A stretch of DNA of 17,299 bases. Source: a virus (lineage: Duplodnaviria > Heunggongvirae > Uroviricota > Caudoviricetes). Where the stretch lies: the IMG/VR virus record IMGVR_UViG_2531839532_000008, positions 1-17,299 of that record; one strand, given 5' to 3'. Below are positions 2 to 14,679 of the stretch, piece by piece. The notes below the pieces were generated by a model. It was not told the DNA's origin and made no database searches. It saw nothing but the letters and a program-made list of their open reading frames with translations. The position numbers and the translations under genes are program-made. Position 1 is the stretch's first letter; each line of letters begins with the position of its first letter.

Positions 2-568
2 TTAGCCTCTTATCTTGAATTCTGCTATAACTTTGCCGATGAATACAAGGTCATTAATGTTCATATCAACAATGATATTCCCATAGTTAATCTTAACTTT
101 ATTATCAGGAATTCTAATAACTTGTTTTATAGAATGCTTTCCATCAATGGAGATTAACCAATCACCATCAACTACATCTGTGAAATCCCTCTCAATAAAA
201 TAAGAGTTATTCCCGTTTGATATCACAGATGGTGATGATAAACCATCAGGAATGAACACCTTGTCAAACATTAGTGTTCCTGCATCCAATAGCACTCCAT
301 CAATCAATTTTATTTTTTGAATATTGATGATGTCAGAAGTTAAATATTCATGTTTAGGAGGTAAGCCTGTTACCAGCCACTTTATGTTTACTCCTGTTTC
401 GAGCGCGCACTGAATAACCCAATCAGAAGGGAATGAATCTCTCATGTAGCGTGTAGCAAGACTGCTTTTTGATATGCCTAGTTGTTCACATAACGCCTGT
501 CTTGTAGTGAACCCATAGGCTTCAACCATCCTTTCGATAGCTTTCTTTCCACCTTGACTAAAATCCAT
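2..568 (-). CDS. Phage immunity repressor, 186 CI-like (N-terminal HTH plus C-terminal domain)
   Basis: The ORF 2..673 translation contains MDFSQGGKKAIERMVEAYGFTTRQALCEQLGISKSSLATRYMRD...CALETGVNIKWLVTG, which resembles the N-terminal DNA-binding region of 186-type CI repressors. Start chosen at the ATG at 566-568, which has an AAGGTG ribosome-binding site just upstream; the 35 codons further upstream in the ORF are probably not translated. Divergent from a Cox/Apl-like gene. Confidence 0.78.
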   Translation of the reverse strand: MDFSQGGKKAIERMVEAYGFTTRQALCEQLGISKSSLATRYMRDSFPSDWVIQCALETGVNIKWLVTGLPPKHEYLTSDIINIQKIKLIDGVLLDAGTLMFDKVFIPDGLSSPSVISNGNNSYFIERDFTDVVDGDWLISIDGKHSIKQVIRIPDNKVKINYGNIIVDMNINDLVFIGKVIAEFKIRG

Positions 569-569
569 C

Positions 570-643
570 GATTTCACCTTGTGAACTTTATGGTTGACGA
601 TTTCAATTTGTGATCTTATAGTCGCATTGATTTCAAAATGTGA
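570..643. promoter_or_regulatory. Three direct repeats GATTTCA-N3-TGTGA (570-584, 599-613, 629-643) at 29-30 bp spacing; candidate operator set of the lysis-lysogeny switch
   Basis: Read directly: cGATTTCAcctTGTGAa, cGATTTCAattTGTGAt, tGATTTCAaaaTGTGAc. Copy 1 overlaps the repressor ribosome-binding site, copy 2 lies in the spacer of the candidate rightward promoter, copy 3 lies at its predicted transcription start. Confidence 0.55.
594..622 (+). promoter_or_regulatory. Candidate early lytic promoter (pR/Pe-like), TTGACG-17 bp-TATAGT
   Basis: Near-consensus sigma70 -35 (594-599) and -10 (617-622) hexamers with a 17 bp spacer, oriented toward the Cox/Apl-like gene that starts at 695. Confidence 0.55.
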
Positions 644-663
644 CTTACAACTGCTCGTCAATG

Positions 664-680: not shown

Positions 681-694
681 GGAGATGTTGCCTT

Positions 695-916
695 ATGACT
701 CAGCACATTTCAATCACATTAGCTGTCCCATCCATTTCGGTTGAAAAGTACAGTGAACTCACAGGGTTATCTGTAGACACTATCAACAGTATGCTCGCAG
801 ATGGACGCCTTAAGCGGCATCGTCTTCGCAAGGATAAAAAACGTGAAAAGGTAATGATCAACATTGCAGCCATGACAGTGGATGCGCTTGCCGATTGCAA
901 TGTCGTAATCAATTGA
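695..916 (+). CDS. Cox/Apl-like small HTH protein (Cro-like switch regulator, possible excisionase)
   Basis: 73 aa ORF divergent from the repressor, with an AGGAG ribosome-binding site. Motif EKYSELTGLSVDTINSMLADGRL resembles the HTH of P2 Cox and 186 Apl. Position as first gene of the early operon matches those phages. Confidence 0.62.
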   Translation: MTQHISITLAVPSISVEKYSELTGLSVDTINSMLADGRLKRHRLRKDKKREKVMINIAAMTVDALADCNVVIN

Positions 917-948: not shown

Positions 949-975
949 ATGTTTGATTATCAAACCTCCAAACAT
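949..975. promoter_or_regulatory. Inverted repeat ATGTTTG-N13-CAAACAT (half-sites 20 bp centre to centre); candidate CII-type binding site
   Basis: Perfect 7 bp inverted half-sites at 949-955 and 969-975. I recall the 186 CII site at pE as ATGTTTG half-sites two helical turns apart, but that is from memory and not verified. Confidence 0.35.
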
Positions 976-1452
976 GCGCACTTTGATACGGCTTGCCGAG
1001 CATTTGCGATTGAGCACAACCTAGAAGATGTGGCCGCAGCCATTGGTATGAGACCACAGATCCTCCGCAACAAATTGAATCCAGCACAGCCGCACCGTTT
1101 AACCTGTGACGAGCTTTTAGCTATTACGGATTACACCGAAGATGCACGTTTACTGGATGGGATGCTGGGGCAGATTAACTGCCTTCCATCTGTACCGGTG
1201 AACAATGCCACAGAAGGCAACATGCAGTTGTGTGCACTAAGTGCCACAGCCAGTGTGGGAGCAATTGCTGGGGAAGCCGTATTAACTGGTCATATGCCCG
1301 CCGCCCGCCGTACACAAATTCTGGATCGCGCTCGCGATGCAATCCGTAGCTTATCCGTGCTGGCTTATACCGTTGAAAGCCGCATCCAGTCTGCGCCCGT
1401 TCTGGCCGCAGCGGTGGATCTGGTGACGGCTAACGCCACCGGCTTGATGTGA
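949..1452 (+). CDS. Phage CII-family regulatory protein (186 CII-like)
   Basis: 167 aa ORF immediately downstream of the Cox/Apl-like gene, with a GGGAAGGGG ribosome-binding region. Size and position match 186 CII (about 169 aa). Confidence 0.65.
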   Translation: MFDYQTSKHAHFDTACRAFAIEHNLEDVAAAIGMRPQILRNKLNPAQPHRLTCDELLAITDYTEDARLLDGMLGQINCLPSVPVNNATEGNMQLCALSATASVGAIAGEAVLTGHMPAARRTQILDRARDAIRSLSVLAYTVESRIQSAPVLAAAVDLVTANATGLM

Positions 1453-2541: not shown

Positions 2542-2775
2542 ATGCACATGACACGTCAGGATTTACCCGCAACAAAATCAGGCACTGACCTGCTGGCCAT
2601 GCTCACTAAAGCCACGCAAGAAGGTAAAGCCGCAGTTGCTGATCTGTGTTCCACCCGCCTGGATAAGCTGGCCCCCCATGCAGCCAATGAAGGTTTAAGT
2701 GCAACGGAAATTGTTGAATTAATCCGCGAAGAAGCCGCAGCGATTTGCGGTAAAGGCGGTGCAGCATGGCAGTAA
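2542..2775 (+). CDS. Early-operon hypothetical protein, 77 aa
   Basis: ORF with an AAGGAAA ribosome-binding site. Its 3' end overlaps the start of the methyltransferase gene. Confidence 0.5.
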   Translation: MHMTRQDLPATKSGTDLLAMLTKATQEGKAAVADLCSTRLDKLAPHAANEGLSATEIVELIREEAAAICGKGGAAWQ

Positions 2776-3635
2776 AAACTCCGCTTAAGTGGGTGGGAAG
2801 CAAAGCCCGCCTTATGCCTCAGTTGCTTCCCCATCTGCCGGAAGGTAAGCGCCTGATTGAACCTTTCGCCGGTTCCTGCGCTGTCATGATGAATACGGAT
2901 TATGACGAGTATCTGATCGCTGATGTGAATCCTGATCTGGTCAATCTGTATAAGACGATGGCTTATCACACAGATGCGTTGCTTATTGAACTGGAGGCTT
3001 TGTTTTTTGCCGGTGCATTAGGCGATGAAGAAAACCGGGCAATTTTCTATTACGCAGTGCGTGATGCTTTCAACCAGTCCGGTAAATCCTTTGGTTCTGA
3101 ATCTGTGGAAGCTGCGGCGCGTTTTCTTTATCTGAACCGTCACTGCTTCAATGGTCTGTGCCGATACAATCGCCGTGGCCAGTTCAATGTTCCGTTTGGT
3201 AAGTACAAAAAAACGTACTTTCCTGCTGATGAAATACGCGCATTTGCTGAAAAAGCGAAACGCGCAACGTTCATTACTGCCCACTATTCAGAAACGCTTG
3301 ATTTGGTAAGGGACGGGCATGACGTTGTTTATTGTGATCCGCCTTACCTGACTGATACCGACAATTTCACCGCTTACCATGAGCGTGGTTTTTCGCACAT
3401 GGATCAGGGACGGCTGGCGCGTAAGTTGCGCCGCCTGGCTGAGCGTGGGATTAAGGTTGTCGCGTCAAACAGCGATCTGGAAATGGTACATTACCTGTAT
3501 GCAGGATTCGAAGCTGTACGGGTAAATGCACCGCGCAGTGTGGGTGCAGCAGCTGCAAGCCAGAAAGTTGCCGCAGAGCTGATTCTTAAGTCACCTGCAA
3601 ACCCGGCGATCGACGTTAGGGCGGTGGTGGCATGA
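2766..3635 (+). CDS. dam: DNA adenine methyltransferase, Dam family (GATC-type, D12 class N6-adenine MTase)
   Basis: Translation carries hallmark Dam motifs: LKWVGSK, EPFAGSCAV (AdoMet binding), FLYLNRHCFNGLCRYNRRGQFNVPFGKYKK and VVYCDPPY (catalytic DPPY). It aligns by eye along its length with E. coli Dam. Confidence 0.9.
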   Translation: MAVKTPLKWVGSKARLMPQLLPHLPEGKRLIEPFAGSCAVMMNTDYDEYLIADVNPDLVNLYKTMAYHTDALLIELEALFFAGALGDEENRAIFYYAVRDAFNQSGKSFGSESVEAAARFLYLNRHCFNGLCRYNRRGQFNVPFGKYKKTYFPADEIRAFAEKAKRATFITAHYSETLDLVRDGHDVVYCDPPYLTDTDNFTAYHERGFSHMDQGRLARKLRRLAERGIKVVASNSDLEMVHYLYAGFEAVRVNAPRSVGAAAASQKVAAELILKSPANPAIDVRAVVA

Positions 3636-14356: not shown

Positions 14357-14679
14357 GATTAGTCATCCTGACAAGAAAAAAAGGGATTTTAAATCAATAC
14401 GATTTTTAGACAATGGTTTTCGTTGTGGGAAGGAGGGACTTTAGTTGTGTCGCCACTTTGTCGCCAAGCATGGGAAATGGTTGGTGTAATCTATTGATTT
14501 CATGGGTTGAAAAATTCAGGCAACAAAAAACCCATCAACCTTGAACCGAAATGGCGGGGGTGATGGGCTCCACAAAATGGGGACATCAAAGAAAAGCAGT
14601 GGCACTAATTAAGACTGATGCCCTGCGGAAAAGTTCTGCGGTTGTGCAAAAAAATTTCATTTTCAGGGCAACTTCAGTT

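Follow-up and report, generated by a model that had tools for sequence, protein, structure and literature searches.

Three repeated sequences that lie between the repressor gene cI and the early lytic genes of an Escherichia coli prophage are interpreted here as the predicted operators O1, O2 and O3 of the prophage's own 186-type CI repressor at its early lytic promoter pR, a reading to which a probability of roughly 80% can be given. The layout of these sites is most likely a widespread variant of the 186/HP1 switch family, in which the operators stand about one DNA turn further apart than in 186. Judged from sequence comparison, the switch is very probably an uncharacterised but common member of this family. 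The 17.3-kb stretch of DNA that was analysed as a whole, called the window below, is 100% identical to E. coli strain 300709 and was found in 17 of 5426 complete E. coli genomes.

Position and spacing of the repeats

The first-pass annotation had described three phased repeats around the early promoter, and these repeats are real. A pattern search of the window yielded exact matches to GATTTCANNNTGTGA at 570-584, 599-613 and 629-643, all on the + strand. No other exact copy of GATTTCA-N3-TGTGA was found in the 17.3 kb, and the count in dinucleotide-preserving shuffles was 0 of 200. When up to two mismatches were allowed, a single extra match was obtained, at 14496, and it is unrelated. A repeat search showed that the similarity of the copies reaches 19-20 nt and that their starts are 29 and 30 bp apart; 12 identical positions are common to the three copies, which all have one orientation. 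The elements of the switch region and of the adjoining genes are the following (window coordinates, strand, description).

5..568, - strand: cI, 188-aa 186-type immunity repressor (ATG 568..566, stop codon 2-4; PF07022, PF16452, PDB 2FJR)
570..586, + strand: site 1 (predicted O1), GATTTCACCTTGTGAAC; copy 1 of the first-pass annotation is 570-584; overlaps the cI Shine-Dalgarno; a homologous site occurs in all relatives
574..580, - strand: cI Shine-Dalgarno AAGGTGA, inside site 1 and 6 nt before the ATG, read from the sequence
594..622, + strand: pR, early lytic promoter, TTGACG (594-599)-17-TATAGT (617-622); 10/12 sigma-70 matches; hexamers kept in relatives
599..615, + strand: site 2 (predicted O2), GATTTCAATTTGTGATC; 17-bp pseudo-palindrome in the pR -35/-10 spacer
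612..615, no strand assigned: GATC (Dam target); makes up the outer end of site 2, one base upstream of the -10
629..645, + strand: site 3 (predicted O3), GATTTCAAAATGTGACT; at the predicted pR start site
685..713, - strand: candidate pL, TTGAAA (713..708)-17-CAACAT (690..685), facing pR; putative, with 8/12 matches, below the scanner threshold
695..916, + strand: Cox/Apl-like excisionase and repressor gene, 73 aa (phrog_575, E=1.3e-26)
949..1452, + strand: cII, 186-type (PF06892, E=6e-46)
1462-1635, + strand: fil (PF10893)
2766-3635: DNA adenine methylase (Dam-type) gene, downstream of pR and in the pR operon

The pair TTGACG-17-TATAGT is the best sigma-70 match between positions 300 and 1100 and the only strong one there. 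Of its 17 spacer bases, 14 belong to copy 2, which also overlaps the last base of the -35 hexamer; about 7 nt separate the -10 hexamer from copy 3, which begins at the expected start site, and copy 1 includes the Shine-Dalgarno of cI, the GGTG of which is kept in most relatives. The placement of the copies on the cI ribosome-binding site, in the spacer and at the start site, as given on first reading, is thus borne out. The same reading had placed all three copies on one DNA face, three full turns apart. The periodicity of 29-30 bp stands, and the phasing is only approximate: at 10.5 bp per turn this distance amounts to 2.76-2.86 turns, which leaves a phase difference of about 50-85 degrees between neighbouring sites and, on straight B-DNA, of about 135 degrees between the two outer ones, 59 bp or 5.6 turns apart. 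A spacing that is not an integral number of helical turns is a point against the interpretation of the repeats as CI operators.

The identification of the repressor as a two-domain protein of the 186 CI type was confirmed by its Pfam matches (PF07022, E=1e-28; PF16452, E=1.7e-26) and by an alignment over the full length with the 186 CI structure (PDB 2FJR, E=4e-24, residues 10-184). The prophage resembles 186 in this homologous repressor and in its gene order, with cI leftward and then cox-apl-like, cII and fil rightward. It differs from 186 in that the two repressors are only about 30% identical, with a very divergent C-terminal domain (about 25-30% identity). Relative to the cox ATG, the candidate pL has the same offsets as the annotated pL of 186 relative to its apl ATG, so pR and this candidate would stand face to face, with predicted start sites about 49 bp apart. 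The hexamer TTTCAA, the candidate pL -35, falls on synonymous codon positions within the cox-like gene and is retained by all relatives.

A layout shared by relatives, with changing site sequence

Searches with back-translated sequences detected 6 genome loci and at least 583 viral-contig (IMG/VR) loci encoding relatives. About 110 of these loci were examined and yielded 52 distinct informative switch regions. All the informative relatives contain three sites at matching positions, 28-30 bp apart, with the departure of L083, where one gap is 25 bp. The common plan reads, in order, cI start, site 1, T-rich stretch, TTGAC, site 2, -10 and site 3. The successive centre-to-centre distances are 29/30 bp in the window and in L081 (the largest group), 28/30 in L005 and 29/25 in L083. 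The sequence of the sites varies between groups, and all three positions change in concert; GATTCCAAAAGCRAWC, for example, is present three times in L005 and in L007. The site types observed are listed below.

Window, L035, L002, L004, L011, L022: GATTTCA..GTGA
L005, L007, L046, L048, L052, L053: GATTCCAAAAGC
L006: TCACAC-C-GTGTGA
L042: GTCCAC-N5-GTGGAC
L047, L083: TCTCGAAAAGTGAA
L050: TTCCCAATTGGGAA

A concerted change of this kind is what the operators of heteroimmune phages show. Among relatives of the same type as the window, the TTTCA and GTGA blocks and the -35 and -10 hexamers are conserved, and no block of the switch is more conserved than site 3; variation is seen in the 3-4 bases at the middle of the sites, in the DNA between sites and in the DNA between 645 and 680.

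A finer view of this variation was provided by 35 near-identical loci of the L081 type (e.g. L081 and L097), where, within 700 nt, three or four alleles occur only at the two bases in the middle of site 2 (positions 40-41 when numbered from the C of the cI CAT). Such polymorphism would be expected for bases that the repressor does not contact; either these bases are unconstrained or selection is tuning pR/O2.

Symmetry and orientation of the sites

Site 1 holds a perfect inverted repeat, TTCAC-N3-GTGAA (573-585). Site 2 presents 6 of 8 complementary pairs about T607, its ninth base, and site 3 fewer. Dyad symmetry in the window alone is weak, with about 3-5 complementary pairs per site (6/8 for site 2) in copies that are not independent of one another, and two registers, centred at position 9 or at position 10, fit about equally. 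The choice between direct and inverted recognition was therefore made by comparison of the family, window symmetry alone being too weak to decide. In 28 distinct family sites, complementarity peaks at positions 9 and 10 (52% and 46%, against 12-34% at other centres). Perfect palindromes can be observed among the homologous sites, in L006 (TCACAC-C-GTGTGA), L042 (GTCCAC-N5-GTGGAC) and L081 (TCAC-N5-GTGA), and also in L050. Site 1 of L081, GGTCAC-TCCAA-GTGAAC, reproduces the layout of the 186 A-type site in a 17-bp frame.

Orientation is variable within the unchanged layout. In L048 (GATTCCGAAAGC, at +70 on the minus strand), L052 and L053, site 3 points in the opposite direction to site 2; in L047 and L083 it is site 2 that runs against sites 1 and 3. 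In L081 the canonical half GTTCAC is the left half of site 3 and the right half of site 1. The inversion of one site in several relatives implies that the same-direction orientation is not a functional requirement. This variability fits symmetric dimers that would bind operators made of one strong and one variant half.

These observations bear directly on the possibility of true direct-repeat recognition, as by the C repressors of P2 and W-phi, in which each site would be one asymmetric element and a same orientation would be needed for head-to-tail cooperative assembly. The first-pass annotation had suggested a P2-like or hybrid mechanism. It would account for the 12 positions identical in all three copies, in one orientation, and for the maintenance of the asymmetry, GATTTCA on the left and TGTGA on the right, at sites 1 and 3 of L035, L002, L004, L011 and L022 at a CI identity of 50-63%; L005 and L007 also have three same-direction copies, and the half-sites of W-phi C flank the -10 at three turns, a similar geometry (PMC2995052). 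The repressor is nevertheless not of the P2 C type, being a 188-aa member of the 186 CI family as against about 99 aa, and 186 CI is reported to recognise inverted repeats (PMC1904268). When added to the partial dyad symmetry, to the palindromic sites of L006, L042, L050 and L081 (site 1), to the sites inverted in L048, L052/L053 and L047/L083 and to a geometry like that of HP2 (described below), these facts make direct-repeat recognition improbable, and the mechanism initially suggested is not supported.

Operators read by symmetric CI dimers leave one feature aside. The GATTTCA half is kept, with the same polarity, at sites 1 and 3 throughout the subclade of the window despite a CI identity of 50-63%, and on these sequences this conserved polarity is unexplained by a purely symmetric reader. 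The helix-turn-helix of 186 CI was reported to recognise two types of inverted repeat (PMC1904268); by analogy, a dual-specificity reading of GATTTCA and TGTGA is possible. As a lead in this direction, GATTTCA seems to resemble the half-site of the central 186 pR palindrome (TCTCAA). The sites of L047 and L083 combine TCTCG with GTGAA, which points the same way as this likeness.

Correspondence between the sites and CI

Across relatives, the N-terminal domain of CI is about 85-90% identical and the C-terminal domain 35-50% (window cI against L002-L030). This pattern, with a conserved N-terminal domain and a divergent C-terminal one, is the reverse of usual heteroimmunity, and possible causes of the C-terminal divergence are oligomers that are incompatible with one another or an escape from antirepressors. 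The substitutions that do occur in the N-terminal domain sort with the site type. I45 (in RDIFP) is present in all four GATTCC groups, three of which have the common 73-aa Cox and one (L005/L007) a different, 81-aa Cox; N39 (in ANRY) accompanies GTATAC, GTCTAC or GTCCAC halves. The common Cox (type A) is found with at least six site types and the 81-aa Cox (type B) with two unrelated ones (L005 and L050). Site type thus sorts with CI substitutions and not with Cox type, which indicates that the sites follow CI. The recognition helix is nearly identical across relatives with differing sites, so that the determinants of specificity must sit at a few other CI positions. Part of this covariation may be due to linkage, the coding region of the N-terminal domain adjoining the operators.

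The same comparison serves to judge two readings in which CI is not the protein that binds. In one of them the repeats would be sites of the Cox/Apl-like protein, which would repress pR or bend the DNA of the switch. Indeed, the Apl protein of 186 acts as a repressor at both pR and pL and has direct repeats of the switch region as its binding sites, and L005 and L007 differ from the window in both the Cox-like protein and the repeat sequence. The sites bound by recombination directionality factors are, however, short direct repeats one helical turn apart, present also at att (PMC7498355), and not elements separated by 29-30 bp. The association of Cox type A with at least six site sequences, and of type B with two, is equally difficult to reconcile with this reading; moreover, no more copies of the repeat were found within 3 kb leftward, up to and just past int, and in 186 the Apl sites occupy the interval from pR to pL and do not cover the pR -35 region or the cI start. 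The Cox/Apl-like protein, which had been put forward initially as a possible second reader, is consequently a very improbable one. In the other reading the repeats would be sites for a host factor, such as half-sites for CRP (AAATGTGATCT), or else a non-functional local triplication. Read from the sequence, TGTGA, and TGTGATCT in copy 2, do match one CRP half-site; the second half-site (TCACA) is nevertheless lacking 6 nt downstream in every copy, and CRP sites were rejected on the ground that only half-sites are present. Site sequences also differ among relatives in the same hosts while the layout stays, and their concerted change at fixed positions excludes a host factor of fixed specificity. 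The restriction of conservation to two blocks around a variable centre argues for selection and not for neutral duplication. Host-factor sites or a chance triplication can therefore be considered extremely improbable.

Comparison with known switches

In the GenBank annotation of 186, from which the site sequences of that phage were taken, three CI sites occupy 57 bp (23011-23067), from the cI start (23011) across pR. The prophage shares with 186 this set of three sites from the cI start across pR, the second of them inside the -35/-10 spacer, as well as a convergent pL candidate at identical offsets. It also shares the half-site of the distal operators FL and FR, which read CTTCACTTAATGTGAAT and ATTCACTTTATGTGAAT in the annotation (ATTCAC-N5-GTGAAT): these sequences identify TGTGAA, which also forms the right half of the present repeats, as the A-type half-site of 186. 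The differences concern first of all the spacing. The pR operators of 186 are two DNA turns apart (Wang et al. 2013, PMC3675496), against 29-30 bp, or about 2.8 turns, in the prophage, and on this point the layout is unlike that of 186, as had been proposed. In the prophage the -35 and -10 hexamers lie between the sites, and in 186 under them; the sites of the window all point the same way and are not symmetric; and about 49 bp separate the start sites predicted for pR and pL, where 186 has 62 bp. Within 186 pR (L001 712-726 and 754-768), the outer parts of the CI region are alike as direct repeats 42 bp apart, TTTCGATAAAACCTA and TTTTGGCTAAACCCA, that flank the central palindrome; this suggests, at the level of sequence, that same-direction and weakly symmetric sites also occur in 186.

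A wider spacing has a precedent in 186. At pB, 186 CI binds with high affinity an A-type pair separated by 32 bp centre to centre, in a configuration that strongly distorts the intervening DNA and was described as not favoured (PMC3675496). This binding shows that a spacing of roughly three turns is within the reach of a 186-type CI. The arrangement differs from that of pB in that 28-30 bp is here the conserved and main one.

A matching geometry can be observed in HP2, which has one copy of the palindrome GGGTCAAATGACCC in the spacer of pR2 and a second copy 28 bp further downstream, just past the -10. HP1 CI reportedly binds these operator-like elements. The prophage resembles these phages in its 186-type CI (29% identical), in the positions of sites 2 and 3, which correspond to the HP2 geometry, and in a third element, partial in HP1/HP2, about 27 bp upstream. 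It is unlike HP2 in that the latter has clear 14-bp palindromes (GGGTCAAATGACCC) of unrelated sequence and two tandem lytic promoters.

The C repressors of the P2 type use two direct repeats placed around either the -10 or the -35, with a separation of two turns in P2 and of three in W-phi (PMC2995052). The prophage has in common with P2, P2 Hy dis and W-phi that repeats of one direction lie on both sides of the early-promoter -10. The likeness does not extend to the repressor, which in these phages is an unrelated protein of 99 aa, nor to the operator, made there of two repeats of about 8 bp without cII in the switch, in contrast with the three 17-bp sites found here. Furthermore, unlike in the P2 C family, the orientation of the repeats is not conserved among the present relatives.

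Proposed mode of repression

On the basis of these comparisons, each operator would be a 17-bp pseudo-palindrome, the right half of which, TGTGA(A/T/C)C, would be equivalent to the 186 A-type half-site and the left half a conserved variant, GATTTCA. We infer that one CI dimer binds each site through the helix-turn-helix N-terminal domains and that the C-terminal domains would then join the three dimers cooperatively. A spacing of 29-30 bp, about 2.8 turns and not two, causes the -35 and -10 hexamers to fall in the gaps between operators. RNA polymerase would be kept off pR by O2, in the -35/-10 spacer, and by O3, on the start site. O1, which sits in the leader of the predicted cI transcript from the convergent pL, would supply cooperativity. 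The silencing of pR would in turn relieve interference on pL, as in 186.

Distal sites and neighbouring elements

A further difference from 186 concerns the distal operators. A weight-matrix scan of the window and of the 3 kb that extend further left in E. coli 300709 detected no convincing sites of the FL/FR type. The best matches near +/-300 bp, at 304 and 914, reach 8-10 bits where the three sites reach 26-28, and the weak match at 304-323 has 3 mismatches in 12 positions. Inspection by eye towards pL, at the expected centres near 666 and 696, found no recognisable further phased site. L005 contains a fourth copy of its operator motif, GATTGCAAAAGC, with one mismatch, 286 nt inside cI from the ATG, at a place homologous to that of 186 FL; distal sites therefore exist in part of the family.

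The element at 914-933, TTCGATTTTGAAAT, is located past the cox stop and is conserved in relatives whatever their operator type. It was considered as a CI-specific site and rejected: it is conserved across unrelated site types and coincides with the location of the 186 pE -10. A conserved inverted repeat, ATGTTTG...CAAACAT (949-975), occupies the opening 27 nt of cII and has its counterpart in the annotated CII site of 186. The two elements probably make up a CII-activated pE promoter.

GATC, Dam and the assembly of CI

The GATC at the outer end of site 2 is found at the identical spacer position in 49 of the 52 distinct family switch regions, whatever the sequence of the site. Together with the DNA adenine methylase encoded by the phage, it suggests that pR, or the binding of CI at O2, may be sensitive to Dam methylation. 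Such a sensitivity, if true, would add a layer of commitment or of epigenetic control to the switch.

Textbooks present the 186 CI wheel, seven dimers (a 14-mer) around which DNA is wrapped, as an alternative to the lambda switch, on a model in which the operators are spaced by two turns. Wang et al. 2013 (PMC3675496) remarked that a three-turn spacing would agree better with their wrapping lengths, yet judged it disfavoured. With three asymmetric operators that have a single polarity and a constant spacing of 2.8 turns, an open or helical oligomer or a larger ring would be easier to reconcile than a planar two-turn 14-mer wheel. The broader proposal that this CI subfamily assembles unlike 186 in one of these ways, with a helix-turn-helix reading two half-sites and with GATC and the phage Dam making CI binding or pR methylation-sensitive, is nonetheless speculative, and we consider it unlikely as a whole.

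A natural subfamily of at least 583 IMG/VR relatives with a spacing of 28-30 bp offers material for testing how spacing, polarity and C-terminal divergence matter in cooperative repression. The site types help to define immunity groups among P2/186-like prophages, and the annotation of the prophage gains candidate operators and a promoter for its switch. Directly to the left of the window, positions 1-3000 of L112 (E. coli 300709) contain the genes of an AAA-family ATPase and of a DUF4276 protein between int and cI. This pair looks like accessory cargo, possibly anti-phage, at the int-cI junction of a P2/186-like prophage.
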